A model generated the notes under the pieces. It had not been told where the DNA came from, ran no database searches, and was given only the letters and a program-made list of their open reading frames with translations. Shown piece by piece: positions 924-30,203 of a stretch of DNA of 30,994 nucleotides. Both the position numbers and the translations under genes were made by a program. How positions within the stretch are numbered: the stretch's first letter is position 1; every line of letters begins with the position of its first letter. Origin of the DNA: a virus; the IMG/VR virus record IMGVR_UViG_3300010239_000001, positions 1 through 30,994 of that record; one strand, written 5' to 3'.

Positions 924-1814
924 TTATTCTTCAAAATCAATCTCAGAGAACATGTCAATCTTGATTATGCTCCAAAAATCCCCCGCGAGATTCCTCCGAA
1001 CATACTCATAATCAAGGTAGCCGTGTCCACGGTCTCCCCAGTCCTCCCCCCAGCTGTTCCTGATTATCAGAGCCCCTTTAGTGTCGTCGTAGCCGACTGC
1101 GAGGACTGCATGGCCCCCGGCCTGCGAATCATGAGTGCTTGGAGGTTTTATGTATCCTCCGCGGGCCGCATCAGTTATGGCATCTCTATACACTGTGAAG
1201 CCAAAGAGCACGGGCTGTCCAGCTGCAAGGTGCCTCTTCACATCCCATAGAATCTCCTCTTGACTTCTGCCAATGCCATCATAGTTGTACCATGCATCCA
1301 CGCGATATTCATCCGCAAGAGCGTAAACGACGGGCTCATAGCTTCTGTCAAAGTCTCCCGTATCATAGTGCGTATTATACTTAGGATCCTCTTCTGGTGC
1401 CCCGAATCGATGCAGGGCCTGCATAGTGTGCTTTATTGTTGCTCCAGTGTCACCATTTTGGATTCCCATCAGATAGCGGTTGTGTTTGTAGATGAATAGC
1501 CTTGAAGGCGTCTTAGAATATTCCATCCCCTTGTTTTGATGATACCATCGCCTCTGATAATATTCAAGGGCCCCGGCGGCCGTGTTAGCTGTGCAGGAGC
1601 CCAGCTCGCCCTGATCGTAGACTGGGGGGAAATGTGCGCGCAGATCTACCCTCCTGGGGAGCGTGGAGGCGTCCTCGGGGACGTTGGTGTTTGTCCGTTC
1701 TTTGAGTATCTTTTCGGCTGTGAAGGCTCGAGGGTCGTCTTTTCGGATAGGGGAGGGTATCCAGCCGTAGAGCTTGTATTTGCGGCCGTTATATTTGATT
1801 TCCAAGCTCTTCAC
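924..1814 (-). CDS. papain-family (C1A) cysteine peptidase, candidate endolysin
   Basis: RVDLR..PPVYDQGELGSCTAN (oxyanion Q, catalytic C), GGHAVLAVGYDD (catalytic H), IIRNSWGEDWGDRGHG (catalytic N). The GTG start overlaps the stop of the upstream two-TM gene (GTGA). Confidence 0.92.
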   Translation of the reverse strand: MKSLEIKYNGRKYKLYGWIPSPIRKDDPRAFTAEKILKERTNTNVPEDASTLPRRVDLRAHFPPVYDQGELGSCTANTAAGALEYYQRRWYHQNKGMEYSKTPSRLFIYKHNRYLMGIQNGDTGATIKHTMQALHRFGAPEEDPKYNTHYDTGDFDRSYEPVVYALADEYRVDAWYNYDGIGRSQEEILWDVKRHLAAGQPVLFGFTVYRDAITDAARGGYIKPPSTHDSQAGGHAVLAVGYDDTKGALIIRNSWGEDWGDRGHGYLDYEYVRRNLAGDFWSIIKIDMFSEIDFEE

Positions 1815-6705: not shown

Positions 6706-9057
6706 TTAGAACGTTCTTGAAATGCTGATGTAGTGCTTTATATAGTCTATTGAGGGTTTGGAGGAGGTTCCACTCTTTATTTGGAATATGAAGTTGAATG
6801 AATCTGAGGACGATGATACTGATATTTCTGAAAGGTCTATATTGTTTGTTCCGCTCGCTAATGACCCTGATTTCACAGTCGTATTGTTTTTCTTCACTGT
6901 GTAGGAAATGGAGCCTTCTGGTATGTCGCATGACACCGTCAAGGTGCCAAGGTTGTTTTCCACACCAATATCGGACCCGGTGAGGGTGTAGGAGGCTGTG
7001 CCGATTGTTGCGACCTTGTAATACACTTTCACGTAAGCACAGTCCACGTAGAAAGTTGCCCCGGCATCAGAATAGTTATCTTTTGCTGAGAGGTCCAGAT
7101 AAAGCGTATCGATATTAGAGGGGGTTACGTTGGAAAGCTCCCAGAGATCTCCATTACCTCCGTAAGTCTCTGTAGTGTAGGATTGAGGCCAGTACGTGGA
7201 TGTATCGGCTTTGTTCGCAGAATTAACGCCGCCAACGTTGATTCTGACAAGCTGGTCGACCCTGTTCACAGTACCGCTCTGCCTTCGTCTAATGGCTACT
7301 TGAATGCCTGTGATCTCTGCATTTGATGGGACATCAAAGCTGAAGCCGTCAAATCGAAGGATATCAGTATAACACGGAGTTTTTGTTGTATCGGCTTTTG
7401 CGCCCGTGTCATCACATGAAAGAGCGTCGCTTTTGTCGTACCAGTAGCCCCAGCCACTAGCGCAGTTGCTGTAGTCCACGTTGGTGGTTGAGGTGGGGTA
7501 TTTATCCCCAGTGTCTTCTGCGCTAGGGTCGTTGACTGTTAGAACGGCTGAGGTGTCGGTTCCGGAGATTATCGTGCCGGAGCGCGACATCTGCTGAAAT
7601 TCTGTATCAGTATCAAAGACGCGAATATAGCCTGACGATGAGCATGAACCCCCATCACTGGCCTTCATAGCGTTAGAGGCGACACCGCTTACCGAACCAG
7701 AGGTAGTGTCGCTTGTTGCGGTGGCATCAGAGCTTGTAACCTCCGTGCTGCCAGTCACAGTATCAGAGGCTCTTAAAGAGTTTGTCACAGTCCCAGAGGA
7801 GCTCATGCTAATGCTATCATTTGCTGTCGCCCCATCTCTGATGCCTTCGACCAATGCTAACGCTACGTCATCGGATGCGACGACAGCAGAATCAGAGTAG
7901 ATAATATTTGAAGACCCTGAGACAGAATCGTTGGCTTTTACGTTCTCGGATGCTGTGCCGCTACCAGCAAGAGCAAGATTATCATTGGCGTTTATAACGT
8001 CTGCTACCGTGCCAGAGCCCGTGCCAGCCTGAGTATCGGAAGCTTTGAGGCTGTCAGGAGTATTGCCGCCACCTTCCCCAGCTACGGAGTCGGAAGCTAT
8101 GAGACCTTCTAATATTGAGCTTAACGACCACTTCAAGTTTTCCTGGCCGATCAAGAGGTTGTCTGCAGCTGTTGACTGCTCAGACTCTACGATGTATCGG
8201 AATTTTTTGGAAGGCGAAAGGGCGTCTGTTAGTTCTTGTAATTCGCTTTCGCCCCATTGTATATTTATGGGCAGCTTCTCTTTATCTACGGATATGAGGA
8301 ATAGGGCTGGATTCTCCTCCTTTGTGAGCATATACTTTTGATCTTGATAGCTCACATCCTGTTCGCAGAGCAGACGCCAGTATCCTTCAATCATGGGTTC
8401 TGTGCCCAAGTATTTGTAGAGTGAGGCAAAGATAACGCCTTTTTCGCGGAGATAAGTAACGTACTTCTCCATCCGAGTCTCATAATAATAATCTGGCTCA
8501 AGGCTCTGATCATGGAAAGGAGGGTAGACACGGTCCAGATGATGATAATCAACGCTCCTGAAAGCGAAACGTGGACAACTCAGAATTTTGCCCTTTAGAT
8601 CGAGCAGCAAGTCCGGGTCGAAGGCGTTTCCCGTGATTTCGTCGTTTTCGGGGATTCCCTTCTCGAAAACGTTCCCATGATAGTCCTCTACTTCAACGCG
8701 GTATGTAGATTGTGGTATCGTGTAATCTGAGGTCAAGAAGAGCTGTTTTTTGTAACGGTCGACGCCAGCGCCGAGCACACCAGAATCGAAGATTTTCTTG
8801 TTGTCCTCGTATAATCTGATACGACGTATGTCCTCCAAGGCAACATCCACGTTGATACTGTATTCTTTTGGGCGAACCTGGTGTCTCCAGAGCCTCAAGG
8901 GACGTCTTGGCATAAAGATAGTCTCTATCAGCTTCTTGGCTGTTTCAGCTTCTTGCAATTCCTCTGCGACGGTCTGAAGGTGGGCGATCGTGTTGCTAAT
9001 TGGTGAAAACGTAAGGAACCAAGGTATCCGGTCTTTCAGGCGTCTAGCAACTCTCAT
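6706..9057 (-). CDS. baseplate wedge-like N-terminus fused to an 18-aa repeat stalk and a C-terminal jelly-roll/receptor-binding-like domain
   Basis: Follows the baseplate J-like gene; central A[SN]D repeats; C-terminal FDGFSFDVPSNAEITGIQVAIRR..YGGNGDLW beta-sandwich pattern. Confidence 0.6.
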   Translation of the reverse strand: MRVARRLKDRIPWFLTFSPISNTIAHLQTVAEELQEAETAKKLIETIFMPRRPLRLWRHQVRPKEYSINVDVALEDIRRIRLYEDNKKIFDSGVLGAGVDRYKKQLFLTSDYTIPQSTYRVEVEDYHGNVFEKGIPENDEITGNAFDPDLLLDLKGKILSCPRFAFRSVDYHHLDRVYPPFHDQSLEPDYYYETRMEKYVTYLREKGVIFASLYKYLGTEPMIEGYWRLLCEQDVSYQDQKYMLTKEENPALFLISVDKEKLPINIQWGESELQELTDALSPSKKFRYIVESEQSTAADNLLIGQENLKWSLSSILEGLIASDSVAGEGGGNTPDSLKASDTQAGTGSGTVADVINANDNLALAGSGTASENVKANDSVSGSSNIIYSDSAVVASDDVALALVEGIRDGATANDSISMSSSGTVTNSLRASDTVTGSTEVTSSDATATSDTTSGSVSGVASNAMKASDGGSCSSSGYIRVFDTDTEFQQMSRSGTIISGTDTSAVLTVNDPSAEDTGDKYPTSTTNVDYSNCASGWGYWYDKSDALSCDDTGAKADTTKTPCYTDILRFDGFSFDVPSNAEITGIQVAIRRRQSGTVNRVDQLVRINVGGVNSANKADTSTYWPQSYTTETYGGNGDLWELSNVTPSNIDTLYLDLSAKDNYSDAGATFYVDCAYVKVYYKVATIGTASYTLTGSDIGVENNLGTLTVSCDIPEGSISYTVKKNNTTVKSGSLASGTNNIDLSEISVSSSSDSFNFIFQIKSGTSSKPSIDYIKHYISISRTF
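7650..8097 (-). repeat. about nine tandem 18-aa protein repeats (A/T-S/N-D start) within the 783-aa gene
   Basis: ASDSVAGEGGGNTPDSLK / ASDTQAGTGSGTVADVIN / ANDNLALAGSGTASENVK / ANDSVSGSSNIIYSDSAVV / ASDDVALALVEGIRDGAT / ANDSISMSSSGTVTNSLR / ASDTVTGSTEVTSSDATA / TSDTTSGSVSGVASNAMK / ASDGG. Confidence 0.75.
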
Positions 9058-9063
9058 GGGCGA

Positions 9064-10200
9064 TCACTCGAACGTCACTTCTATTATACCACTCGTAGCC
9101 CGCTCATTATCACCAATAACGACCTTTTTGGTAGGATATTCAAAATCAACATCCTCTAGTTCTGGGTAGAGATCGGCGAGGTAATTCATAAGCTTGAACG
9201 GGCTGAAATTCTCACCAATACCGAGCCCGTCTACAATCTGGCCGTTAGAAGCTCTTCCACCATCAATATAGGCGCGAATATCCTTCTCCAGATAGTACTC
9301 AAGGTTTTCTCTCCGTTTGCCGCCGAGGAGGGCCCCTGCGGTCTCAAAAGTTGCGACACAATGAACATTGACAACCTTTTCCTCCACCCCTACGACCTTA
9401 ACGTCTTCGTCTGCTGCTTGCACATCAACTATAGCGTCACGTGCAAAGTCTACAACGACATTGGAGGGCGGATCTACGATCACTTTGACAGTGCCGGGCC
9501 CATCCCAACGCGGGATGATTTTGAAGTTCCGAAGACCAGCCACTCTGTTCAAGGCTGACTCATAAGCGGTGTAGGTTCCCCGCTGCTGCTCAAAGGGCCA
9601 CATTCTGATCCTCCGCGCAAGAGAATTGTCATCTTCAGCGCTGTTGCCTCCAGTCGACGCTTCATGGTTAAAGACGGTAACTCCTTCGACCTGGTCCACG
9701 AGGACCGTCAGTTCTCCGGCGCCGATGCGTGTTTCCGGCCCAGCGCCCGCAGAAATGGCGTAGGTCGTGGCTTGGAGTTCGTCAGCGGCGATCACAGCCT
9801 CATACATTGTGGAGTAGATTATCCCGGATTCTGTGGCTATTCTTGTGTTAACAGGGACTAGGATTTCTTCGTCTTGAGCTGATTCGAGCTTTTCGAAGGT
9901 AATAGGTGCAATTGATCTCGTAGGCCCGAGGCGTTCTAAGCCGACCAAACTGGCTAAGCGGTCCAGATCAGAGCCCGTTGCCCTATCCACATCAAAAGAG
10001 TCCAGCAATGATTGGAGATCTTGATAATATTCAGCGAGGATGTCTGCGAAGGACGCTAAGAAGAGCACATAATTGTTCTCGATTGATTCACCCCGCGTTA
10101 TCCTGTCAAAGAATCCAATATCATCAGATAGAAGTCCTCGCTCATATGCTTTTGTTATTAGTCCAGCAAGTATTTCACGATGACTTTTTAGTCTGAGCAT
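9064..10200 (-). CDS. baseplate J-like wedge protein
   Basis: ATGSDLDRLASLVGLER, STGGNSAEDDNSLARRI, RGTYTAYE and PRWDGPGTVKVIV are characteristic of the baseplate J family. Confidence 0.88.
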   Translation of the reverse strand: MLRLKSHREILAGLITKAYERGLLSDDIGFFDRITRGESIENNYVLFLASFADILAEYYQDLQSLLDSFDVDRATGSDLDRLASLVGLERLGPTRSIAPITFEKLESAQDEEILVPVNTRIATESGIIYSTMYEAVIAADELQATTYAISAGAGPETRIGAGELTVLVDQVEGVTVFNHEASTGGNSAEDDNSLARRIRMWPFEQQRGTYTAYESALNRVAGLRNFKIIPRWDGPGTVKVIVDPPSNVVVDFARDAIVDVQAADEDVKVVGVEEKVVNVHCVATFETAGALLGGKRRENLEYYLEKDIRAYIDGGRASNGQIVDGLGIGENFSPFKLMNYLADLYPELEDVDFEYPTKKVVIGDNERATSGIIEVTFE

Positions 10201-10203
10201 GGC

Positions 10204-10752
10204 CTATTCACCACCCAACGTCACAGTGAAGTATTCTTCTCCGCCCTCTATTGTTACAACACCAGCCTCGATAATCACGCCTTCGTCCTCGGCACGATAT
10301 GCTTTTACACCCAGAACCTCTTTGATACGGTCCATTTCGTCCAAAGCCGCCCACACAGCATCCTCCAAAGCTCTCAAGGACGCAGAAGAGAATCTCTCAT
10401 AGATTTGCTTGTACACGTCGCCCCCCCATCCCTCGAATGGGGGATATTCAAGCTCCCCTCTGATTGTGAGTAATTTCAAAACAACGCCTGATATGACTGA
10501 TTCAAGGTCCTCGGCGACTATGATGTCCCCGTTTTGATATGCGACGTCCCAGACGCGTTGTTTTGGGTCATAAGGGTCCCCTGGGAAGGTTACGTCAGCG
10601 TTGATTTCCGGGTCGTATCCGACCATCCCACGCGCTACGACGAGCGGTTCGTCGATTGCGCCCGTGCCGTCAGTGCTCCCCTCTGCCAGGAGCGTCTCAT
10701 AGGAGTAAACCATGAATGCGATGTTTTTGTCGAGCCTTGGGTAGTTTCCCAT
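10204..10752 (-). CDS. baseplate wedge protein, gp25/W-like (XkdS-like)
   Basis: NGDIIVAEDLESVISGVVLKLLTIRGEL..P.EGWG..LEDAVWAALDEMDRIKEV; immediately upstream of the J-like gene. Confidence 0.75.
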   Translation of the reverse strand: MGNYPRLDKNIAFMVYSYETLLAEGSTDGTGAIDEPLVVARGMVGYDPEINADVTFPGDPYDPKQRVWDVAYQNGDIIVAEDLESVISGVVLKLLTIRGELEYPPFEGWGGDVYKQIYERFSSASLRALEDAVWAALDEMDRIKEVLGVKAYRAEDEGVIIEAGVVTIEGGEEYFTVTLGGE

Positions 10753-10753
10753 T

Positions 10754-11332
10754 CTATTTTACCTCTTCTCCATTGATATAGACTTTTCCGCTGATTTCAA
10801 CGCCGTTGTCAGATATTGTGATCTTATTGTCGCAAACACCCAATTCTATTTTTGGCTCTGGGGCGATGCGGATCTTAGCACGGCCAAATTCGAAAGTCCA
10901 CCCATCTCCGAGGGTCCCGCTCGAAGAGATCAGCTGATCATCCCTTTTCACAAATCCGAGGATATATGCCCCCTTTTTGTCCATCTCGCCCTCAACTGCG
11001 AGCGTCACCGCAAAAACATCATTCTCAGGCACCACATAGTTGCCGTAGGCGTCTACGCCCTTCTTACCCCTAGGGGTGCATGCTAAGATTGTGTCATTGT
11101 CAAAGAAGGGGTAGGTGAAGCGAACAGGGTAAGGGTCAAAGCGTGGGTTCTCTATTTCACGGAAGGGTTTCACAAAGGCGACTCCTCGATCAGGGTAGAT
11201 CTTATAGACTTTCACAAGGCGGAGATAGATGTCTCGTTTGTCAAGGGGTGGTTTGCCTGGCTCTCCTCTCATCCGACCCCCCAAGAGCCTGCGAATGCTC
11301 TTCTCCACATCACCAGCGGTTATAACAGTCAT
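10754..11332 (-). CDS. baseplate central spike (gpV/gp45-like)
   Basis: OB-like N-terminal part (LVKVYKIYPDRGVAFVKP), beta-helix-like C-terminus (ITISDNGVEISGKVYINGEEV); sits between hub and wedge. Confidence 0.6.
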   Translation of the reverse strand: MTVITAGDVEKSIRRLLGGRMRGEPGKPPLDKRDIYLRLVKVYKIYPDRGVAFVKPFREIENPRFDPYPVRFTYPFFDNDTILACTPRGKKGVDAYGNYVVPENDVFAVTLAVEGEMDKKGAYILGFVKRDDQLISSSGTLGDGWTFEFGRAKIRIAPEPKIELGVCDNKITISDNGVEISGKVYINGEEVK

Positions 11333-11348
11333 CTTTTACCCCTCCAGC

Positions 11349-13454
11349 CTATTTTTGGCTTTGTTTGATGACAGTCAAGTTAGGCCTCTGAGATGTGGTG
11401 CGGAAAAGCTGGTTAAAGCCGTATTCACGGTATGGGATGTCCACCCATTGCCCGTCCAGGTAGATTTGGACTGTGCGGTGCTGGGGGGATTGTCCGGTGG
11501 CGTATTGTATGACTCTGGCCTGGAAACCAGCCTCGGTTAATCTGTTGAAGAGATAGTCGGACATGGCCCGGCAATCACCACATCCGCGTTTAACAAGGCA
11601 GTTAGCGTCTGAACAGCCTGAACAATATCCAAATTTCGCGGCGTCGCGGAGAATCTGATCGAGCTTCGTTTTATCACCGCTTCCTCCTTTTTTTTCCGTG
11701 CCGCTAGTCTGCGCTGGAGGCTTCCAAAGCGACATCTCCAAGCTTGTAGTGTAATCATCCGCCTGGATTTTGTGGGAAATTCCCTTTAAGTAGAGGAAAT
11801 CGGTGTAATCTTCTGGTTGGTTTTTCACATGCACCCAAGAGCCTGGAAAGAAGCCAGGATCTGCTAAAACCTCGCATGTGACGGTCTCGGCGGATTCCAC
11901 GCGTTGCACTTCTCTCAGAGCCTTTTTGCCAATCAACGCAGCATCCTTACCGTCCAATTCGGGCCACGTAACATCTACGATTCCTGGATAGCGAGTTTCA
12001 GGATATTTGGTGATATCTTTGTCGTAGATCACATTTCCTTTATTTTTTGATCCGCCGTCAGCAAATTTGATCCTGATCCCTGAAACGATCGGAGCTTTCC
12101 CTTCTGTCATATCAAACGTCTCATGTATCATGTTATGGTCAGACCAGGCCACAAAGACCTCCTTAGCCTCTTCAGGCATCGGTATTTCTTCTATATAGAC
12201 TGTGTCGCCCCTAACATAGACGTGCACGTCATTCTCCCATTTCTCGAGGACTTTGTATATCGCATCCCAGATCGTCATTTCTTGCACCGTTGTCGATTCG
12301 CCGCCCTCTCCACTTGCGGATTCGCTGGACGTCCCACTACAACTAGTCTTCAAATATCTAGGCCACGGAGCTTCGTGGACAGCACCGCAGCCGCAATAAT
12401 CTCTGTCGCAATTGCAGCAGAAAAAGTGTCCTTCTGGGAATATGTTTGCGCCGCCTTGTGCTGTGCTCGCATCGGTATCGCCCGGGCATTTGTTGACGTT
12501 ACAGTCTGGGGGGCATCGGTTGTACGCTATTCTGTTAGATCCGCACGCACAAGGGCCCACAGCTGTGCACGTCGCCCATTTGCCGCTTCCGCTTGGTGGG
12601 AGGGGACAGTCGCTCCTTCCACATGATTTCTGGAATTGTCCGCTTGCGCTGCCGCCGCCCCCTCCTTTTTTCTCGGCTTGGAGCGTAACTTTCGTTTCGA
12701 GGATTTTCCTGCTGAGGCGGATGTCCCCTTTGAGCCCGCTATTCTCGATGATATCAACCAGGATCTCTTCAACGGTCTTGTCAACGTATGAGAATGATTT
12801 TTTCTGTTCAAGGAGAACGCCCGTATCCGCAAAACTCACCACGATCTCTCTCTTTGTCTTTTTCACTTCTGCTACAAGCGCCTTGAATGCTTCCCTCATA
12901 ATCTCCCGCGTCTTCTCCCCTGTTTTAGGATCTAGGACCTCATTAGGATACCTATAACCAAATTTGAAGATCAGCTCGTCCCCCTGGCCTATCCGGTCGA
13001 ATCTCTCTTTTGAATAGACGAGTGTAAGGGAGCCAGTGCCTGTAGGCTCGTTTATCTTTTTGTCGAAGCTTATTGAGATGATATCTTTGAGCTCGTAACG
13101 GTCTATGATCGGGCAACGATTCATATACTTGTAAATGCCGAATAGGGCAATATTATCAAGCATGTAGTCTTCGATGGACCCAGGGCCGCTGCTCTCCTCA
13201 GCTCCGCCCTCTGCGGTCTCCTCCGCGGTTTCCGGCGCCCCGGCTTCGCTTGCTTCAGCTTCTGTACTGTCTTGCTTTTCTGATGATTTTTGGGGGGCTG
13301 ACGACGTCTCTACTGCGGTGAAGTCTATTGCCATGCTTGTCGGATACTGCCAGCGCTTCAGTGCTTCGCACATTTTCCTCCTGACCAATTCTACTTTGAC
13401 TATTGGCTGCGCGCCGGCCCGAAGTGGGAGATTAGCCACTTCCAAGCTCATCAC
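11349..13454 (-). CDS. baseplate hub protein with a Cys-rich insertion and a C-terminal transglutaminase-like (Cys-His-Asp) peptidase domain
   Basis: Hub-like segments (DIISISFDKKINEPTGTGSLTL, DKTVEEILVDII, TIWDAIYKVL, GFFPGSWVHV..LYLKGISHKI..YTTSLEM); C-terminal GDCRAMS..QHRTVQ..WVDIPY triad. Confidence 0.75.
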   Translation of the reverse strand: MMSLEVANLPLRAGAQPIVKVELVRRKMCEALKRWQYPTSMAIDFTAVETSSAPQKSSEKQDSTEAEASEAGAPETAEETAEGGAEESSGPGSIEDYMLDNIALFGIYKYMNRCPIIDRYELKDIISISFDKKINEPTGTGSLTLVYSKERFDRIGQGDELIFKFGYRYPNEVLDPKTGEKTREIMREAFKALVAEVKKTKREIVVSFADTGVLLEQKKSFSYVDKTVEEILVDIIENSGLKGDIRLSRKILETKVTLQAEKKGGGGGSASGQFQKSCGRSDCPLPPSGSGKWATCTAVGPCACGSNRIAYNRCPPDCNVNKCPGDTDASTAQGGANIFPEGHFFCCNCDRDYCGCGAVHEAPWPRYLKTSCSGTSSESASGEGGESTTVQEMTIWDAIYKVLEKWENDVHVYVRGDTVYIEEIPMPEEAKEVFVAWSDHNMIHETFDMTEGKAPIVSGIRIKFADGGSKNKGNVIYDKDITKYPETRYPGIVDVTWPELDGKDAALIGKKALREVQRVESAETVTCEVLADPGFFPGSWVHVKNQPEDYTDFLYLKGISHKIQADDYTTSLEMSLWKPPAQTSGTEKKGGSGDKTKLDQILRDAAKFGYCSGCSDANCLVKRGCGDCRAMSDYLFNRLTEAGFQARVIQYATGQSPQHRTVQIYLDGQWVDIPYREYGFNQLFRTTSQRPNLTVIKQSQK

Positions 13455-13461
13455 CGTTCAC

Positions 13462-14235
13462 TCATTTTCGCACGGGCTTGGAGACGTTCGTGATCCTGTA
13501 TTTTTCAGCTCTCTTCCTGTTCCAGACTTTTTCGCGGCCGCAGACGCCGCAATAATTTGCACCACACTTTGTGCAGTGGAGTTGTGCTTCGGGGATTCTC
13601 GAGCTGATTTCGCGGATAAGCTTACCCCCACAGTGCTTACAAACCATTTCCCAAGCCACAACATACCAGACATACTTGTAGCCGTCATATTTCATGCAGA
13701 ATGCGCAAGAAGGCTTGTACTCACCTGTTTCGCCTTTGGGGGTGGTTGTCGGCACTTCATTCTTGGTTTCAGACTTCTGTTCCTCCTCTTTCTCCTCCGC
13801 TGGGAGCTGGACGTCATCTAGGGGTTCAGCCGTCTCTTTGACCTCGAAAGCGATCTCGCCAAGGCCAAAGTGGTCCTTAGCATCATGGTCGTAATATCCA
13901 CCCTCCGATGGCTTGAACTTGACCTCAACGGTCGTGAAGCCTTTCATACACCCGTCTAAATGCGGCGAACAGACTGTAACAATCTTTCCGTCAAGATTCT
14001 TAACATAACGGTATGCTTCACGGCTCAACTCAATAAACTCGCATGAAAATTTGGCTTCACGCGCCCGTTTCGGCCCAAGTAGGATAATTTGGCCTCTTTC
14101 GACTACTTTTTTCTCTATTGGCTCGAATCCGCTATTAGATGCGGGTTTGACTTCGAAGTCTTTCACTATGAAGGGGATTCCGTCAACGGTGACTGTTGCA
14201 CGGTCCTTGTCCTTCTCCCAATGACGAATAACCAT
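13462..14235 (-). CDS. tail tube initiator/distal-tail-like protein with a C-terminal Cys-rich domain
   Basis: Directly after the tape measure gene; C-terminal CAFC..CKHC..CTKC..YCGVCG. Confidence 0.55.
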   Translation of the reverse strand: MVIRHWEKDKDRATVTVDGIPFIVKDFEVKPASNSGFEPIEKKVVERGQIILLGPKRAREAKFSCEFIELSREAYRYVKNLDGKIVTVCSPHLDGCMKGFTTVEVKFKPSEGGYYDHDAKDHFGLGEIAFEVKETAEPLDDVQLPAEEKEEEQKSETKNEVPTTTPKGETGEYKPSCAFCMKYDGYKYVWYVVAWEMVCKHCGGKLIREISSRIPEAQLHCTKCGANYCGVCGREKVWNRKRAEKYRITNVSKPVRK

Positions 14236-14253
14236 GAAATCACCAGAGGCGGA

Positions 14254-16818
14254 TCATAGTAGGGCTTCTTTTGCTGTCCAGTAACGGAGGCCCTTCGCGA
14301 CTATCCTTGCGGCTTCCTCTTCAGTCTTATCACGGGCATCAACCTGCACGGCACCCTTCTCGAAGACAATCACCTTTGAGCCGGCGCCAGCGGGCGCCCC
14401 GGCTTCAACCCGCACCGTTTTCGCAGCAGCTGCGAGAGAGGCAAGGCTTTCAGCCCGATCGAGCGTACGCCCTACCCTTGCAATGTTTGCAGGGTCCAAG
14501 TCAGGGAATTCCATGATAGTATGCCCGGCTGCTTTCACCCTGAGGGGGCTCTCTCTTCTCCACGTGATCGGAATGTCGATTCTGATAGGTGTCCCTGGTA
14601 TCCCTATTGGAAATGAGGGTGTTCCTGATGTCGCTGGTCTCCCTGTCAGGCTCATGGAGGGTCCACCCTTTCCTGTGGAGCCTCCTCCACCTCCACCTGC
14701 GCCACCAGTGGAACCTGGCGTCTTGTTTTCGACAGGGATTCCGTTCCAGGCGAGGAGAGCGTTGACAGCGTCCCATATTTTCCCTGCTACCTTGTCCCAC
14801 GCGTCTTTCAGTTGACTGAGGAAATCTAGGAGAGGTTTGATCTTGTCTGTGACCCATTGGATTGCGTCCCGGACCGCGTTCCATGCTGCCACTAGAGTGC
14901 CCCATATGAAGCTAGCAATCTTTGAAAATATTTCCCAAACGCGTGAGGCGGCATTTCTCAGTGCATTCCAGGCTGCTACCAGGACTCCCCAGATGAACGC
15001 TCCGACTTGCTTCAGGGCCTCCCAAAGGCGGAGCACGGCCGCTCTGAAGCCTTCGTTTGTCTTCCAAAGGTATAGGAGGATTGCTATGAGCGCTACGATT
15101 GCTATGATGATGATTACGATGGGGTTGGCCGACATGGCCGCGTTTAGGAGCCATTGGCCAGCTGCGGCGATCTTGGAAGCAGCCCCGTAGAGAAAGTTCT
15201 TGACTGCTCCTGCGGCGGTCGCAGCAGCATTCTTTATCGAAGAGCCGATGCTTGCAAGGGTGGCTCTGTTTAAGCCCCACTGTGCGGAGGTCGCACCAGT
15301 TATAGAATCCTTTAAGCGGCCAAATGATGATACAACGCCCCCAGGGACGCCCTTTATCCTGGATATGGCCCCGCTAAGCCGCGCGGACAACCCGGACGTG
15401 TCAGGAAGGGTTACGCGTCCCCGGATGTCAGGAAGGCTTATGCGGCTGAAAGCGTCCTTGGCTTTGCTTCCTATGCCAGATAGAGTGTCTTTGATGCTTG
15501 AGAGTTTGCCTTTCACTTCGTCGAGGGGTGGTAGGGCGTCTCTGATCTTCCCGGGGATTTTGCCCGCAGCGTCCTTCACTTTTCCAAACGCATCCTTTAG
15601 TTTGTCAGTGAGCTTGATCTTATCACCTATTTTTTTGCCAATGCTGATAAAGGGGTCAAAGGCGGTCTTCACAACTGACGCGATCAGGCTAAGGGAGCCT
15701 AGGAATGCGACAATCCCTCCGAAGCCCACTAAGATTTTAGTGGACCACCCGCCAGTTGCTTTGTGAATATCGTCGAATACTTTGAGTATTGTTGATAAAA
15801 CTGGCAGTAAAGCCTCGCCGATGTCTTTGGTGACTTCTCTTATCTTGTCTTGCACCTCGCTCCACTTGTTTACCGTCGTATCCAATTGGCTAATACCTTC
15901 GTACCCCATCTTCCTCAGGATGGGACGTAAAGCCATGGCTCGCTCGAAGGGGCTCTTATCCTTGTATTTTTCCAATTCTTCGACATATGGTGCAAATGGG
16001 CTATCTCGCTTAATCGTCGTGGTTTCTCCTTTGAGAATCCAGTCTATCAGCTCTCTCTTGGCTTCAACTTCAAGTTGCCCGTATTCCATCGAAACTAGGT
16101 AGTAATCGCTGGCTACGGCGGCTACATCTTCAATTTGTTTCTTAGTTAGCTTTGATTGCATCATCATGGGACCAAGAATCATATCAAGGAACTCAGTAGG
16201 CACTGGGCTTCTCTCTACTGCGGATCGCATTCCGCCTAGCATGTTATTAGCTGTTTCTTCCCCCCATCTGCGAGTGAGAATCGTCCTCCGCATCTCCCTC
16301 TGCATTGCACCCCCTACTCCAATGCTCAGCATCTCCATGAGCCCAAAGCCTGCTATGACGCTGCCAATGGCATCTGATAGTCCCTCCATCGAAGCTATTG
16401 CACTTGAAGCCGCGGATTTGACGCTGGAGAGTGCTGAGGTCCCAACGGATCTGAGGGTTTTAAAGGAGCCGCCCGTAGCCGTGGCAGTTGTGCTCAAGGT
16501 CTTGGTAGAGGTGGTTGTTGTGGTGATCGATCCCCTGACGCTTGTTAGCGCTGAGTTGGCCGTCCGTGACGATGAGGCAAAGCTTGTCCCGACTGTTGTG
16601 GCTTCGGCGCTTGCCTTGCGCGTGGCGGTTGTGTTCGCTTGCAGAGCTGCTTGTACTTTTGCTAGGGAGGACGTAGCTGCATTAGATGATGCTGCAAATT
16701 GGGAGCCCATTCTGGAGGCTCTTGAGGTTGTTGAGTTGATTGCTGCGTTTATTCTGTGGAGTGCGGCGCTCACATTCTCAGTTGCGCGGATCCGAACGAG
16801 GAGGTCGGTTGCGGGCAT
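14254..16818 (-). CDS. tail tape measure protein
   Basis: 854 aa, Ala/Ser/Thr-rich helical N-terminus, ANPIVIIIIAIVALIAILLYLWKTNEGFRAAV..W motif, Trp-periodic repeats; position after the chaperones. Confidence 0.9.
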   Translation of the reverse strand: MPATDLLVRIRATENVSAALHRINAAINSTTSRASRMGSQFAASSNAATSSLAKVQAALQANTTATRKASAEATTVGTSFASSSRTANSALTSVRGSITTTTTSTKTLSTTATATGGSFKTLRSVGTSALSSVKSAASSAIASMEGLSDAIGSVIAGFGLMEMLSIGVGGAMQREMRRTILTRRWGEETANNMLGGMRSAVERSPVPTEFLDMILGPMMMQSKLTKKQIEDVAAVASDYYLVSMEYGQLEVEAKRELIDWILKGETTTIKRDSPFAPYVEELEKYKDKSPFERAMALRPILRKMGYEGISQLDTTVNKWSEVQDKIREVTKDIGEALLPVLSTILKVFDDIHKATGGWSTKILVGFGGIVAFLGSLSLIASVVKTAFDPFISIGKKIGDKIKLTDKLKDAFGKVKDAAGKIPGKIRDALPPLDEVKGKLSSIKDTLSGIGSKAKDAFSRISLPDIRGRVTLPDTSGLSARLSGAISRIKGVPGGVVSSFGRLKDSITGATSAQWGLNRATLASIGSSIKNAAATAAGAVKNFLYGAASKIAAAGQWLLNAAMSANPIVIIIIAIVALIAILLYLWKTNEGFRAAVLRLWEALKQVGAFIWGVLVAAWNALRNAASRVWEIFSKIASFIWGTLVAAWNAVRDAIQWVTDKIKPLLDFLSQLKDAWDKVAGKIWDAVNALLAWNGIPVENKTPGSTGGAGGGGGGSTGKGGPSMSLTGRPATSGTPSFPIGIPGTPIRIDIPITWRRESPLRVKAAGHTIMEFPDLDPANIARVGRTLDRAESLASLAAAAKTVRVEAGAPAGAGSKVIVFEKGAVQVDARDKTEEEAARIVAKGLRYWTAKEALL

Positions 16819-16822
16819 AAGC

Positions 16823-17032
16823 TCACACGTTTAATTTGCTCTTTAGCTTTTTTCTCTCCTTTTCGAGCTTTTTATGCTCCTCGGCTTCACGTAAGAGCCT
16901 GAAATAATGGTAAGCGTAAAGTGCGAGGATATCTTTCTCATATTTGTGCTTTATGACCTTGGCCGGCCGCCAGCCAAGGTCTCGGCAGATTCTGCGGATA
17001 ACCTCAAATTCTGCTGACTTTGTTAAGGCGAA
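16823..17032 (-). CDS. tail assembly chaperone C-terminal extension (GT-like), reachable only by a +1 frameshift from 17004..17774; not in the ORF track
   Basis: Open frame 17071..16823 has no ATG/GTG/TTG start apart from a GTG at its last sense codon; translation FALTKSAEFEVIRRICRDLGWRPAKVIKHKYEKDILALYAYHYFRLLREAEEHKKLEKERKKLKSKLNV; ends 5 nt before the tape measure start. Confidence 0.7.
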   Translation of the reverse strand, partial: FALTKSAEFEVIRRICRDLGWRPAKVIKHKYEKDILALYAYHYFRLLREAEEHKKLEKERKKLKSKLNV

Positions 17033-17774
17033 ACAACTTGTCTGTTTCGTCTTTGGATAATCCGAGGGCTTCTAGGGTTTTGATTAAGGCAACGGATTGT
17101 AGGGCTGTTGATTGAGCCTTCCAAAACTCCAAGGCCTTCTTTTTGTCATCGGGCGGTGATAGGAAGGTTGCGAGGAATTTGGCAACGTTTTCGGTTTCTT
17201 TTGCGAGGCTCTTCATTCTGAGTTGGTCAAGCTTGAACATCAGTTCTAGGTACTCTTCTTCCTCTTTTTCGTTTTTGAGCATGCCTGTCATGCCTTTTCG
17301 CAGTTTCACGCGTTCAGCAGCCGTTAGCTGTTCGAGGATGCGCTCATCCATGTTCACCATCGATAGATCATCCCCGGGCTCTATGGGCTTAACTCTGAAT
17401 TCTAGGATGTATTCGCCCGTATTTATCCTAATCCTCTTCTCTCGATCAGGCTTGAAGACCTCAAGGAGCTCACGCTCTGTCTTCAGAACGGCCTTGAAGT
17501 TCTCAAGATCCTCCAGCGTTTTCTCGAGTCTGTTCTTTTGCTTTTTGCTCTTGATCGTCTTATCGATCTCATCTTTATATTTGACGAAGAGCTCGCGCAG
17601 ACGCTTGATTTTCAGATCATCAGAAGCCTTGATCTCGCTCTCTTCAAGCTCCTTGACAAGCTCTTGCTCATCCGCGGCCAATTTGAGTTTCTTCAAGGCT
17701 GGAAGGAACTGGTTCTTTGCAAGTTCTAGGAGCGCTTCTTTTGCGATTTGTTCGTCTGTCTTAACCTCTGCCAA
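17004..17774 (-). CDS. tail assembly chaperone (G-like)
   Basis: Helical, charged 256-aa ORF between the tube and tape measure genes; TTG start with GAGGAGGGG RBS. Confidence 0.7.
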   Translation of the reverse strand: MAEVKTDEQIAKEALLELAKNQFLPALKKLKLAADEQELVKELEESEIKASDDLKIKRLRELFVKYKDEIDKTIKSKKQKNRLEKTLEDLENFKAVLKTERELLEVFKPDREKRIRINTGEYILEFRVKPIEPGDDLSMVNMDERILEQLTAAERVKLRKGMTGMLKNEKEEEEYLELMFKLDQLRMKSLAKETENVAKFLATFLSPPDDKKKALEFWKAQSTALQSVALIKTLEALGLSKDETDKLFRLNKVSRI

Positions 17775-17806
17775 AAGATAACCCCTCCTCTAAGGTTGTA
17801 GGGTGG

Positions 17807-17830
17807 GGGAGAAGCTCGGGGGCTCCTCCC
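17807..17830 (-). other. intergenic RNA hairpin after the tail tube gene
   Basis: mRNA GGGAGGAGC-CCCCGA-GCTTCTCCC forms a 9-bp stem (one G-U pair). Confidence 0.5.
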
Positions 17831-17840
17831 TTCAACGGGT

Positions 17841-18326
17841 TTAGGTCTGGAAGGCTGGTGATTCCTCGATTAGTTGGGGTGCGAGGACTTCGAAGCCATG
17901 GTGAGCCTTTAATTTCCACTTTTGAGAGCTTGGTTCGTTTATCGTGAATTCTGTGTCGATGTCGACGCTGCTGCATCCGTAAAATCGCATGGCCTCGACG
18001 AACTGGGCTTGGCTTTCAGAATAGGCCCACACTGAGATCGTTAGATCGTGATTGTCGGCCATCTGTTCGAGCTGGCGCTTGTAGGGGAGCTCATGGACGA
18101 GCATGTCGTCAAATTCGAGCTCTATCTCCCATTTTCCGTCGACGACAAGGGATGGGAAGGGGCCGTTTGTGTAGACTGCTTTTTGGTCTTTCTTGGAGGA
18201 GATTTTGAGTTTGCTTGCGTGGACTTGTATGGCTTGATCTTGTGACTTGGCGACGAAGTAGGCGAGGCCCCCGCCGTATACGACTTTGGGGAGTTGTGCT
18301 TTTGCGGTTGTGACCATTATTGTCAC
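17841..18326 (-). CDS. tail tube protein
   Basis: 161 aa beta-rich protein directly after the sheath; pattern LKISSKKDQKAVYTNG..GKWEIELEFD..RFYGC. Confidence 0.75.
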   Translation of the reverse strand: MTIMVTTAKAQLPKVVYGGGLAYFVAKSQDQAIQVHASKLKISSKKDQKAVYTNGPFPSLVVDGKWEIELEFDDMLVHELPYKRQLEQMADNHDLTISVWAYSESQAQFVEAMRFYGCSSVDIDTEFTINEPSSQKWKLKAHHGFEVLAPQLIEESPAFQT

Positions 18327-18345
18327 CGTATTCGGTTAATTTAGC

Positions 18346-19569
18346 TTAACTTGTGACGTATGAACCTTGTGCGGTGATCGTGGTCGTTATTCTGACTTGT
18401 TCAATGCTCTCGGGCGGTATTAGGTTCATTTCGAGGTCTAGCATGTTTGGTGAGTCTGCGTTGACGTATGCGTCGATTGTTCCACCGGCGATGGTCCCTA
18501 AGCTCGTCTCTCGGGCTATGATCGCCTCTCCACCGCTCTTGACCATGTTGGCAGCGTCCTCTGTCGCCATCTCATATATCATGCCGGCTGCCATGTCCAT
18601 GATCCTCTTGGCGACGTAGTCGCAGGCGACTCTTGCATAGATCGTCGAATCAACGGGCCTTTGACCGTTGGGGTCCTTTCGATAAGACGTTAGCACTGGC
18701 CAGACCGGACCGTAGCGGACTGCGCTCCTTGGCTTAAACAGCCAATCGCAGTTTATACCGGCTTCTTTTAACTGTACGAGCTCTGACCATGGCCTCTCAA
18801 GAATGTAGTCGTCTGTTATGGTCTTGTATGTGTGTTTGCCAGGGTTCTCCCATGGGTACGTGCCTGCAATGAGCCCAGCGAAGCCCGCCAGGTTGTTAGG
18901 GTTGTCATAGAGGCATATACGGGAAGAGCGGATATATGAGAGCTCGCCAGTGTTTGTTGGATCTGTGAGGTCTATGAGCTCAGCGACGGTCGCAGAGGAT
19001 GGTGTTGGGGCATAGGCGATCGTTGGCCTTGGGAAATTGGAGTAGCCAAGTGATGGGTCGCCGTGGAGCATCTTGTAGAGATGATCGTCGACCTTGTTCA
19101 AGAAGTAAGTGAATGCGTTGGGGTACGTAGTTGTGTCGATTGTAAGTTGGTCTATTCCGATTTGGTCGCCCGCATCAAGGTAGATTTCCATGTCGATCTG
19201 GTCATTGACGTCTGCGAGGAGATCAGCTGCGTGCAAGTACCTGTTTATGATGTCTTCGACCGTTAGGGCTGTTGTGTCGCCGATATCAACCACATAGACG
19301 TGGTTTACGGGGCATCGCTGAATGTCGTGGCATATTCTGGCCTCAAAGAAGAACTGCTTGACCGCTGCGACCAGTCGCCCACCCTCTTCCTCGCTTGTGT
19401 AATTTGCGACGACGTCTGGGAAGTATTCGACTCTTTCAACTGTTATATTGTCTGGGTTGGTTATTTCGACGTTGGATGAGCCTATTATTGCGGCTGTCTT
19501 GCCCTCGCCTTGGCAGCGAGGAACCAGCTCAACCTCCTCGGGGCTGTAGATCACTCCGGGAAGTCCCAT
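18346..19569 (-). CDS. contractile tail sheath protein
   Basis: N-terminal MGLPGVIYSPEE, C-terminal LKEAGINC..STIYARVACDYV..LDLEMNLIPPESIEQVRITTTI, typical of sheath proteins. Confidence 0.85.
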   Translation of the reverse strand: MGLPGVIYSPEEVELVPRCQGEGKTAAIIGSSNVEITNPDNITVERVEYFPDVVANYTSEEEGGRLVAAVKQFFFEARICHDIQRCPVNHVYVVDIGDTTALTVEDIINRYLHAADLLADVNDQIDMEIYLDAGDQIGIDQLTIDTTTYPNAFTYFLNKVDDHLYKMLHGDPSLGYSNFPRPTIAYAPTPSSATVAELIDLTDPTNTGELSYIRSSRICLYDNPNNLAGFAGLIAGTYPWENPGKHTYKTITDDYILERPWSELVQLKEAGINCDWLFKPRSAVRYGPVWPVLTSYRKDPNGQRPVDSTIYARVACDYVAKRIMDMAAGMIYEMATEDAANMVKSGGEAIIARETSLGTIAGGTIDAYVNADSPNMLDLEMNLIPPESIEQVRITTTITAQGSYVTS

Positions 19570-22920: not shown

Positions 22921-23946
22921 TTAGGGGGCGGTTGGTGCTTCTATCTTAGCCACGACTGCGCCGTTGACATCGGCGTACGTACAGTCGGCCCTCATTGATA
23001 GGACGTGCTCAACTCTTCTCGCGCTTGGTATCTTCTGAGATTCCACTGTTATTTCTCTGTAGACGCCCCAGACCATGTTATTTGGCCTGGAGAGCATAGC
23101 TACGCGCCCTACGTGAGCTGTGGCCGTTGCGTCGTCAAGCGTTGGCACGTGGACGACTGGAATACCGTCAAATGTGAGCTGCCTCTGGCCGAGAAGGGCT
23201 TCGTCGCCGATAACAGTCTCCCGGGCGGCTACCTGGTCCCTGTATGCCCTGTGGGTTTCCCAGTCAACGTAGAACCTGACGTCGCCCCGCTGGATGAGGT
23301 ATTTTTTGTCTATGGCCTCTAGCATGGCGTCAAACATGTTCATTGGGAAGTCAGCGGCGGATGGGTCAAAATCGGCAGGCGTGGAGTTGTGCTGATAGCC
23401 GTAGACCGTATTTCCGGCGAGTTTGACCCAGCCATCTGTTGCCTTCAGGATCAGAGGAGGGCTCGAAGTTGCTAGATCTGTGTCACCAAAGACGAAAGCC
23501 CTCTCTAAGTCGAGAGAGGCGCTTTCACCAAGCATTCTGACGATTCGGTCCTCGAATCTGGGGCCTTCTATCGTGTCCTCGAGTGTGTCGTAGTCTATGA
23601 CGGCACGGAGGACGAACTCCTTGGCATTTAGCATGTTCTGCTGTATGTAGCCGCTAAGTGAGAAATCGTCGACGTTCTCAGTTTCTCCTGGGATTACTTT
23701 GACTTCTTGGCCGCTAACGGTTATTCTGCCGGGATAGAGGTACCCAGTGGGCATGTCGATGGCTGCTATCTCTTTTTGGTAGCTTTTCATCCTTTCCATT
23801 CGTGCTTCGTTGAGAATAGTAGCTTCCCGCTGGACAACCTCGATAAACTCTGCTAGCTGCTCCATTGCTTTTAATCCACCAGCAATCTCGGAGTTATCGA
23901 CGATTTTAAACACTTTATTCGCTTCAAGGTATTCGTGTATGTTCAT
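22921..23946 (-). CDS. major capsid protein (HK97 fold)
   Basis: 341 aa; EQLAEFIEVVQREATILNEAR, IDYDTLED, DLERAFVFGD, DGWVKLA, LTFDGIPVVHVP, NMVWGVYREITVE..EHVLSMRAD. Confidence 0.9.
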   Translation of the reverse strand: MNIHEYLEANKVFKIVDNSEIAGGLKAMEQLAEFIEVVQREATILNEARMERMKSYQKEIAAIDMPTGYLYPGRITVSGQEVKVIPGETENVDDFSLSGYIQQNMLNAKEFVLRAVIDYDTLEDTIEGPRFEDRIVRMLGESASLDLERAFVFGDTDLATSSPPLILKATDGWVKLAGNTVYGYQHNSTPADFDPSAADFPMNMFDAMLEAIDKKYLIQRGDVRFYVDWETHRAYRDQVAARETVIGDEALLGQRQLTFDGIPVVHVPTLDDATATAHVGRVAMLSRPNNMVWGVYREITVESQKIPSARRVEHVLSMRADCTYADVNGAVVAKIEAPTAP

Positions 23947-28730: not shown

Positions 28731-30203
28731 TCAAAGCCTCTTCTCGATCCGAGATTTCAAGGTTTCAAGGGTTTCGATTATCTTGTTGACGGCTTCTTCT
28801 TCTCTTGGAGCCTCTACTGGCTGGCCTCTGATGTAATGGCAGTCCATGAGCGGGTGATCTGATGGTTTGATGTTGTATCGGCCGCTGAAACGCTTGATAA
28901 GCTCGTTGGGCGTCATAGCCCCAGCATCGAACAATTTCAGACAGTTTTGCAGATCCTGATCATCCTTCTCAACGTCAACGTTTCTGAACCTGAACTCCCA
29001 GTCGGCTGTGTTGAAGCCTCTGGGGTCCCGGATTATGTAGCGGTTGATTGCCTCCTCCCAAAGGCGTTGTCTGTGCTGTATGATGCCTTGTTTGTAGTTG
29101 ATCCTTGTCATCTGGGCTGTGTTGCCTCCGAGGGCGCCTACTTGCATGACTCCAATCCTGTAGGGGTCGACTCCATGCGCTGTGATGATTTCGTCGCGGT
29201 TATCCATCCCGTATAGGCGGAAGCTGGCCTCCTTCGTCTCCACTGATAATTTCTCAAATTCTACTTTGATATTGGAGTTTTTCTCGCCCGGAATGGCGAG
29301 TATCAGGGGAGTGTGGGGATTTCTGACGATTTCTTTGAAATGGCGTTCTATAGCTTCTTGCAGGACAGTAGAACCCGTTGGTTGCCCGTTCTCGTCCAGG
29401 ATCGCCTCATCTTCAAAATCTCCAGTAATGAAGACCGCATAGGACGGCACACCATAGTTTTTGAAAAATGAGATATTATAATCTTTGCGGGCCTCTTCGG
29501 CCGCTATACTGTGAATAGCAGGCACATAATCAGGCACACCGTAATAGGAGCTGCGAGTGGAGTAATTATGAATCATGATGAGTTCGTTGGCGGCCACGTC
29601 GCCGGACAAGCTCCCAAGGGGATACTCTTCACCAGTGTCCATATGCACGTCTTTTTCATAGCCAAAACGCTTGAACCAACGGTACTTAATACCATCCCAG
29701 CTTTGTGCGTACTTGTTCTCGCTTTTGTGGATCCGTATGGTTGCGGCCGGCACATGCTCCAACGATTTGATCTTCCCATGGTGTATGCCACCGTATCTGA
29801 CTATTTCAAGGCAAGCCCAGCCCACTTCTTCAAAATCTTGCGCAGCTTTCAAGAGTGTGGTCTCGAATGAAGGATATAAGCTCTTAAAGAACTTCTCGAT
29901 CTCTTTGCGCTCCTCTTCGTCGGCCTCGTCGGAAACGGCGACCAGTTCCCAGCCTTGGCCCACGGTATCGACTGCTTTCGTTGCGCAGCAGCGGGCATGG
30001 AATGTGTTCTTTTCTGAGAGGGATGCGAGGCCAAAGGGATTGTATGGGGGCTCTACAAGGCCTTTCCTCGCGTATTTGCCTCTGAAGGTGTCGGATTTCA
30101 GTTGCTTGGATTCTCCGGCGATTTCGTACTGTTTTAGGACTGATTGGGACACGAATCTGCCGCCTTCAACCACAACACCGAACGGTATCCTCTTCCTGGT
30201 CAT
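28731..30203 (-). CDS. portal protein (PBSX-like)
   Basis: GLVEPPYNP..HARCCATKA..HVPAATIR..ELIMIHNY...YYGVPDY..YNISFFKNYGVPS..HGVDPYRIG..GAMTPNE. Confidence 0.92.
   Translation of the reverse strand: MTRKRIPFGVVVEGGRFVSQSVLKQYEIAGESKQLKSDTFRGKYARKGLVEPPYNPFGLASLSEKNTFHARCCATKAVDTVGQGWELVAVSDEADEEERKEIEKFFKSLYPSFETTLLKAAQDFEEVGWACLEIVRYGGIHHGKIKSLEHVPAATIRIHKSENKYAQSWDGIKYRWFKRFGYEKDVHMDTGEEYPLGSLSGDVAANELIMIHNYSTRSSYYGVPDYVPAIHSIAAEEARKDYNISFFKNYGVPSYAVFITGDFEDEAILDENGQPTGSTVLQEAIERHFKEIVRNPHTPLILAIPGEKNSNIKVEFEKLSVETKEASFRLYGMDNRDEIITAHGVDPYRIGVMQVGALGGNTAQMTRINYKQGIIQHRQRLWEEAINRYIIRDPRGFNTADWEFRFRNVDVEKDDQDLQNCLKLFDAGAMTPNELIKRFSGRYNIKPSDHPLMDCHYIRGQPVEAPREEEAVNKIIETLETLKSRIEKRL

Follow-up and report, generated by a model that had tools for sequence, protein, structure and literature searches.

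The baseplate hub and its C-terminal domain

The sequence analyzed here is a single viral record of 30,994 bp (IMG/VR record IMGVR_UViG_3300010239_000001), referred to below as the window, in which all long open reading frames (ORFs) lie on the minus strand. One of these ORFs encodes a 701-amino-acid (aa) baseplate hub protein that ends in a small domain resembling transglutaminases and papain-like cysteine peptidases (Table 1). We consider it probable that this protein is the hub of a tailed virus infecting methanogens with a pseudomurein wall, probably Methanothermobacter, and that it carries a virion-borne cell wall peptidase, with a transglutaminase fold and a Cys-His(-Asp) active site, on a flexible C-terminal tether. 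The candidate wall-degrading domain and the structural tail tip protein are contained in one ORF, with a disordered linker between them.

The isolated domain was modeled with AlphaFold2 from a 40-sequence alignment, giving a predicted local distance difference test (pLDDT) score of 93.6. In this model, Cys628 is found at the N-terminus of a helix (residues 39 to 52 of the domain) and His659 at the start of a strand (residues 70 to 77). The best matches of the model in the PDB, identified using Foldseek, were 3isr (6e-4), bacterial transglutaminase, PNGase, LapG, arylamine N-acetyltransferases, and TglA, with the pseudomurein-cleaving enzymes PeiW and PeiP at ranks 37 to 39. All leading Foldseek and VIA-align matches were transglutaminase-like or papain-like Cys enzymes, which also included 4xz7, factor XIII, vasohibins, and CPR-C4 proteases. 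The domain is therefore predicted with high confidence to adopt the transglutaminase/papain-like cysteine peptidase fold, confirming the claim of an earlier, sequence-only reading of this DNA that the hub ends in a transglutaminase-like domain.

A HMMER search with the domain over 1.84 billion representatives recovered 262 relatives at an E value of ≤1e-3, and 140 at 1e-10. Residue counts were made on 163 domain instances from this search, domain architectures were scanned in 130 family members, and organism names were available for a few members. The Pfam family Transglut_core (PF01841) was matched at an E value of ≤1e-3 by 11 of the 130 relatives (best, 5e-6), a likeness at the superfamily level only. 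Neither the domain sequence nor the 40-sequence profile found anything meaningful among PDB sequences (tyrosine phosphatase, a designed PPR protein, and others, all with E values of ≥0.04), and an NCBIfam scan gave nothing useful.

The predicted nucleophile, Cys628 in the motif GDCRAMS, is kept in 160 of 163 instances; the predicted general base, His659 in QHRTVQ, in 162; and Trp670 in all 163. Position 672, the candidate third triad residue in WVDIPY, is D in 121 instances and N in 17, with D present in 72 of the 82 hub-length proteins, and 140 instances have D, N, E, or Q at either 672 or 674. All three residues of the presumed triad are invariant in four clusters of hub homologues (50 to 96% identity). 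Conservation of the motifs across the family, together with this invariance, indicates that the GDCRAMS/QHRTVQ/WVDIPY set is not a product of chance. Judged from conservation, Cys628 and His659 are secure predictions as catalytic residues, and Asp672 is a provisional one. The complete triad described in the sequence-only reading thus holds for Cys and His, and all three motifs are present, with the Cys628 codon exactly where it had been placed (11573..11571); the Asp is there too, but its assignment remains provisional given its variation across the family.

Giant bacterial Ig-like or "tandem-95" proteins (from Paludibacter, Halobacillus, and Photobacterium) also appeared in phmmer searches and were ruled out as relatives, being repeat artifacts. 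Their matches (P0028, P0036, P0052, and others; E values of 1e-21 to 1e-28) cover query residues ~60 to 109 only, repeated 6 to 14 times, and none of these proteins is matched by the family hidden Markov model at 1e-5. Repeat-driven false positives of this kind call for caution in reading phmmer lists.

Hub fold and tail module

Profile searches with the hub yielded weak matches, to the Pfam family YQBQ-like (22.8 bits; E value, 7e-5; below the 27-bit cutoff) and to PHROG 196 (baseplate hub; 0.019), as well as a match to PHROG 400 (tail protein; 3e-6). Among the 130 family members scanned, YQBQ was matched by 10 hub-length relatives (best, 2.9e-11). A full-length AlphaFold2 model (30-sequence alignment; pLDDT, 78) retrieved hub proteins in Foldseek, namely, those of diffocin (8v3w_H, 1.4e-15), Mu (gp44; 1wru, 9e-12), T4 (gp27; 1k28_D, 1e-9), and phage 812 (9euf_E, 1.6e-9). 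Further matches were 7b5h, 7aef, the hubs of contractile injection systems of Anabaena, Algoriphagus, and Streptomyces, and Haloferax tailed virus 1. The order of genes, i.e., tape measure, 257-aa protein, hub, 192-aa protein, gp25-like protein, and Baseplate_J, is that of PBSX/Mu-type baseplates. Because the full-length model has the hub fold and the gene order fits, the core of the protein is, on the strength of the model, a baseplate hub, as had been proposed from the sequence alone (E values of 1e-15 to 1e-9 to known hubs). The four homologue clusters (96, 69, 64, and 50% identity) retain the whole C-terminal region, and the linker that joins the peptidase domain to the hub is variable among homologues in both length and sequence.

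TABLE 1 Features of the hub gene and of the neighboring tail module, in window coordinates
Feature	Position	Strand	Basis or remark
Baseplate hub gene	11349..13454	-	701 aa (P0001), GTG start, stop codon included; ORF list and translation
Transglutaminase/papain-like cysteine peptidase domain (predicted), aa 594-698	11361..11675	-	AlphaFold2 domain model
Gly/Ser/Lys-rich flexible linker, aa 576-593	11676..11729	-	pLDDT <50 at residues 583-593 of the full-length model
Cys628 codon, predicted nucleophile	11571..11573	-	Conservation and model
His659 codon, predicted general base	11478..11480	-	Conservation and model
Asp672 codon, candidate third triad residue	11439..11441	-	Conservation
Cys-rich insertion in hub, aa ~275-372	12339..12632	-	Cys residues invariant in homologues
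Tape measure protein	14254..16818	-	Tape-measure families in PHROG, best E value 5e-22
257-aa protein between tape measure and hub, C-terminal Cys-rich ribbon	13462..14235	-	Weak zinc-ribbon Pfam matches
192-aa protein directly downstream of hub, XkdR/spike position	10754..11332	-	Position alone
gp25-like sheath-initiator/wedge protein (weak)	10204..10752	-	Pfam Sheath_initiator E 0.11, PHROG 261 E 0.072, position
Baseplate J-like wedge protein	9064..10200	-	Pfam Baseplate_J 92.3 bits, PHROG 6 at 5.9e-39
783-aa tail-fiber-like protein	6706..9057	-	37% identity to PhiF1 ORF39 over residues 564-704; match of residues 109-231 to Methanobacteriales virus vir080

The 192-aa protein downstream of the hub had no match in Pfam, PHROG, or NCBIfam scans. 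Neither of the ORFs at the tail sheath and tube positions (18346-19569, 407 aa, and 17841-18326, 161 aa; both minus strand) had a PHROG match, the 407-aa ORF had no Pfam family, and no similarity of the two to the annotated PhiF1 sheath was found. Since these ORFs lack a family match, a contractile tail is suggested by the baseplate genes only. Near its N-terminus, the hub contains an acidic, Glu/Ala/Ser/Thr-rich low-complexity stretch (aa 38 to 91; 13182-13343, minus strand) that is disordered in the model (pLDDT, ~35). The length of this stretch varies among close homologues, with an 8-aa deletion in P0002, and it is absent from ORF35 of the virus PhiF1.

Relatives with wall-binding modules

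Wall-binding modules recur among the relatives of the domain: 12 of the 130 family members carry the pseudomurein-binding repeat (PMBR), 8 carry PG_binding_1, 3 carry PG_binding_3, and 2 carry PG_binding_2. The forms with PG_binding_1 sit in clusters that are 100% Archaea/Methanobacteriota, and a relative with 52% identity (P0025; E value, 7e-29) bears the name "pseudomurein-binding repeat-containing protein" and comes from Methanothermobacter sp. In Methanobacteriota, fusion to modules that bind pseudomurein or peptidoglycan has recurred, which points to the wall as the substrate.

Cellular proteins of Methanobacteriota that combine PMBR or PG_binding_1 with a transglutaminase-like domain belong to the same domain family, with the G-D-C, H-R-x-V-Q, and W motifs kept. 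They include the group III "TG-type" proteins, which are classed among adhesin-like proteins (PMC11532034) and for which wall cross-linking, remodeling, or adhesion has been proposed (PMC11532034, PMC10117817). These cellular forms are surface proteins that bear wall-binding repeats, and often a membrane anchor or signal as well, whereas the hub domain is part of a tail protein. Among viruses, seven of eight other records tested that contain the domain or a relative of the hub also encode Peptidase_C71, the family of the Pei enzymes, or PMBR (six above the family cutoff); the remaining record, G010, has neither. In AT-rich viral contigs, Peptidase_C71 is found at 36.8 bits in a gene separate from that of the tail-borne domain.

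A true homologue of the whole protein is encoded by a cultured virus. ORF35 of PhiF1 (QGH71191.1; BLASTP, 1e-32) has the hub core, a Cys-rich insertion, and a C-terminal domain with GDCYGMS...HRSVQ...WVD, and its gene likewise lies after the tape measure and before Baseplate_J. It is the best structural match in BFVD (598 aa; 40% identity; TM score, 0.88). The two proteins differ in that overall identity is ~23 to 25% and ORF35 has no N-terminal acidic low-complexity region, and the 74-kb genome of PhiF1 has a head module unlike that of the window. ORF35 and vir249_00030, from the virus vir249, are annotated as hypothetical proteins. As the homologue belongs to a cultured Methanothermobacter virus, the question of entry is open to direct experiment.

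Host of the virus

In a search of 50,697 phage records, the hub had matches in just two, Methanobacterium virus PhiF1, which infects Methanothermobacter thermautotrophicus, and Caudoviricetes sp. vir249, a gut virus whose host is Methanobacteriales. The terminase matches PhiF1, and the fiber matches both PhiF1 and vir080. The capsid is closest to those of psiM2, psiM100, and Drs3 (34 to 36% identity; 1e-45 to 1e-53), with the best bacterial phages at 29%, and for the portal, psiM2 gives 37% identity (1e-77). A blastn search of 7 kb against the phage records returned only a 73-bp chance match, to the tape measure gene of a Gordonia phage. The GC content of the window is ~50%, about the same as that of Methanothermobacter genomes (~50%).

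From these similarities, we infer that the virus almost certainly infects a methanogen of the Methanobacteriales with a pseudomurein wall, and the genus is probably Methanothermobacter. That the virus is archaeal, as the sequence-only reading had held, is borne out by its similarity to Methanobacteriales viruses and by the pseudomurein-binding repeats of the nearest cellular relatives of the domain. The same reading took the domain to be the best clue to the host; the domain does point to Methanobacteriota, but the capsid and portal, through their similarity to psiM2, give a clue that is no worse.

The head module (capsid, portal, and protease-scaffold region; 22921-23946 and 28731-30203, minus strand) is closest to the siphovirus psiM2, and the myovirus PhiF1 is the nearest match for the hub, fiber, and terminase. 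At the level of sequence similarity, module mosaicism among Methanothermobacter viruses is clear. Sequence nearly identical to window positions 9000-18999 occurs in metagenomes of at least eight studies, covering landfill, oil field, crude oil, subsurface, and digesters, and ~40% of the sampled words of this region occur in two digester metatranscriptome runs. The habitats of the matching runs fit Methanothermobacter and the bacterial Synergistaceae alike and do not discriminate between them as hosts.

Comparison with the Pei enzymes

Several features are shared between the hub domain and the pseudomurein lysins PeiP of psiM2 and PeiW of psiM100 (PF12386/MEROPS C71; PDB 8z4f and 8jx4). In both, the Cys lies at the N-terminus of a helix and the His on a strand; both are encoded by viruses of Methanobacteriales; and the layout of PMBR plus catalytic domain found in PeiP and PeiW is common to some relatives of the hub domain. 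The ESM Atlas cluster nearest in language-model features is a Pei/Peptidase_C71 cluster of Methanobacteriota (0.94; 164 of 256 features), which serves as a lead only. The motifs, however, differ, being GDCWAMS...HRxVQ...WVD in the hub domain family and NCTD...GH...WxxxD in Pei, so that the Asp follows the conserved Trp by two residues in the former and by four in the latter. PeiP and PeiW are soluble lysins with N-terminal PMBR, whereas the hub domain is fused to a structural protein and lacks PMBR. The presumed roles also differ, entry for the hub domain and lysis for Pei. The Pei enzymes cleave the epsilon-Ala-Lys isopeptide bond of pseudomurein, PeiW and PeiP having been assayed on synthetic Glu-gamma-Ala-epsilon-Lys peptides (PMC4592898), and the term "endoisopeptidase" would apply to the hub domain by analogy only.

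Viruses of the same host group can possess both kinds of protein: PhiF1 encodes, besides the tail-borne domain, a separate PeiP-like protein (ORF48), located where its structural module ends, and vir249 likewise has a separate Pei gene. If the tail-borne domain acts at entry, a Pei-type exit lysin would be expected alongside it, as is the case in these viruses.

The structural module of the window ends, in the place expected for a lysin, with a gene for a 296-aa papain-family peptidase (924-1814, minus strand; Peptidase_C1, 58 bits; Peptidase_C39_2, 27.9 bits; PHROG 16701). A C39-type pseudomurein lysin is known, PeiR of phi-mru (PMC6189367). Because of this precedent, and because the window has no Pei/C71 gene, the 296-aa peptidase may be the exit enzyme of the virus.

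Proposed function and alternatives

We infer that the hub domain is catalytically active, that its substrate is pseudomurein, in which it would cut a peptide or isopeptide bond, and that it is present in the virion and acts at entry. Three tethered Cys-His peptidase domains would be held at the tail tube's tip, and upon contact of the baseplate with the cell, they would reach the pseudomurein sacculus. With His659 as the general base, Cys628 would then attack the cross-linking stem at a peptide or isopeptide bond, and local opening of the wall would allow passage of the tube and the DNA. Exit from the cell would fall to another enzyme. The closest mechanistic precedent is the hub of Staphylococcus phage 812/phage K (PDB 9euf; PMC13433997), which has a C-terminal wall-cutting domain; the corresponding activity of the window hub is a prediction. 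This CHAP "cleaver" domain degrades cell walls in zymograms and, according to one proposal, opens a path for the tube (PMC13433997). It has a Cys-His-Glu triad, acts on bacterial murein, and shows no sequence relation to the window domain; moreover, the host of phage 812 is a Gram-positive bacterium, and its hub bears a saposin-like clamp domain, whereas the window hub has a Cys-rich insertion.

Several results weigh against this assignment. The third triad residue is variable, with 23 of the 163 domain instances having no D, N, E, or Q at 672 or 674. Alone, the domain scores 18.2 bits (E value, 0.003) against PF01841, for which the cutoff is 23 bits. The Peptidase_C71 model (PF12386; cutoff, 22 bits) finds nothing in the window at an E value of ≤10, and hhalign comparison with five Pei catalytic domains gave probabilities of 1.8 to 14.6%, in an alignment that, at this low probability, pairs Cys628 with the Cys of the PeiP NCTD motif. 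Since the domain fails the Peptidase_C71 model, its family is different from that of PeiW and PeiP. The likeness to these enzymes put forward in the sequence-only reading accordingly survives as a common transglutaminase/papain-like fold and not as membership in C71. Nor is PMBR found in the window at an E value of ≤10, so that neither PMBR nor Pei is encoded there. The window is also a genome fragment (CheckV, 36%) that has no host flank and lacks its replication and integration genes, so that the host is assigned from sequence similarity. Finally, in the passage of PMC10117817 that cites Leahy 2010, transglutaminases are postulated to be cross-linkers of pseudomurein, not cutters.

The last of these points also favors an alternative in which the domain is a transglutaminase or wall anchor rather than a hydrolase, with an acyl-enzyme or another attachment to the stem peptide, covalent or non-covalent, locking the baseplate irreversibly to the wall and penetration being purely mechanical. 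The fold and the subthreshold Pfam match are those of a transglutaminase core, TglA and bacterial transglutaminase are among the top structural matches, and the cellular relatives, as surface proteins with wall-binding repeats, have been called adhesin-like (PMC11532034). We nevertheless regard it as unlikely, as the papain-like domains known from phage hubs and tail tips are hydrolases (the phage 812 cleaver), PeiW and PeiP hydrolyze pseudomurein isopeptide bonds with the same fold, and a cross-linker at the tail tip would impede passage of the tube; acceptor or donor specificity, moreover, cannot be deduced. A protease acting on proteins, whose target might be the hub or tape measure, for maturation, or a surface protein or receptor of the host, would be in keeping with structural neighbors such as LapG (which cleaves a surface adhesin), vasohibins, and CPR-C4 proteases, and with the lack of a wall-binding repeat in the window hub. 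This, too, seems quite improbable, given the repeated fusions of the family to wall-binding modules in Methanobacteriota and the retention of the domain, at the C-terminus or internally, in tail proteins of two architectures.

A different host would change the substrate. NCBI members of the hub cluster are labeled "MAG: Synergistaceae bacterium," from a metagenome-assembled genome (MAG) in which a viral contig 96 to 98% identical to the window (JBFXIQ010000019.1, L013/L029; 24,093 bp) was deposited, and Synergistaceae live in the same habitats (oil fields, digesters, and landfill); the domain would then cut murein. We consider this highly improbable. At 24 kb, the contig does not reach the length of the virus, and it has no host flank, so that binning is the sole link; of 79 Synergistaceae genomes, only that same MAG contains the hub; and the contig search yielded no integrated copy, returning only the Synergistaceae-binned viral contig. 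Similarity in the phage records is all to Methanobacteriales viruses, and the relatives of the domain come from Methanobacteriota. For the first two of these reasons, the label is probably a binning error, marking archaeal virus proteins as bacterial in NCBI.

With the virion-borne wall peptidase as the preferred reading, the domain would address a gap in the biology of these viruses, their passage across the pseudomurein wall. To our knowledge, the only characterized pseudomurein hydrolases, PeiW, PeiP, and PeiR, are exit enzymes. In the literature searched, which did not extend to the methanogen virus compendium of Medvedeva et al. 2023, we found no description of a domain of this kind on the tail of such a virus, and pseudomurein hydrolases featured only as exit enzymes. 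The same exit-only role is given to them in a review from 2024 on how archaeal viruses enter and leave cells (PMC10791045) and in a survey of lytic proteins. Tail-associated lysins are a known kind of protein; what would be new here, as predicted from sequence, is one in archaeal viruses that is directed at pseudomurein and drawn from a separate family with the transglutaminase fold.

A broader and more tentative suggestion, which we rate as possible but doubtful, is that the domain defines a pseudomurein-active transglutaminase-fold family apart from Pei/C71. Its cellular members would include the postulated cross-linking or remodeling enzymes, and viruses would have captured the domain more than once, in myovirus hubs and siphovirus-like tip proteins, for use as an entry hydrolase. 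If this were true, one family would open both the missing last step of pseudomurein synthesis and the mechanism of virus entry. A new pseudomurein-active family would bear on the enzymology of pseudomurein cross-linking and be of interest where methanogens of the rumen or of digesters are to be lysed or inhibited.

The Cys-rich ribbon module

The Cys-rich insertion of the hub is probably metal-binding. Residues 171 to 255 of the neighboring 257-aa protein (its C-terminus; about 13465-13720) are 42% identical to the insertion of the PhiF1 hub. The ribbon module ends in a C-x-C-D-x-D-Y-C-G-x-C-G-like motif and is present in two copies, in adjacent baseplate genes; it is also found in the PhiF1 hub. 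In the ~1,020- to 1,041-aa tail proteins of AT-rich Methanobacteriales viral contigs (L003:8351-11413, L008:8477-11602, and L026:8371-10164), the ribbon is situated directly upstream of the peptidase domain, and the two seem to travel together.

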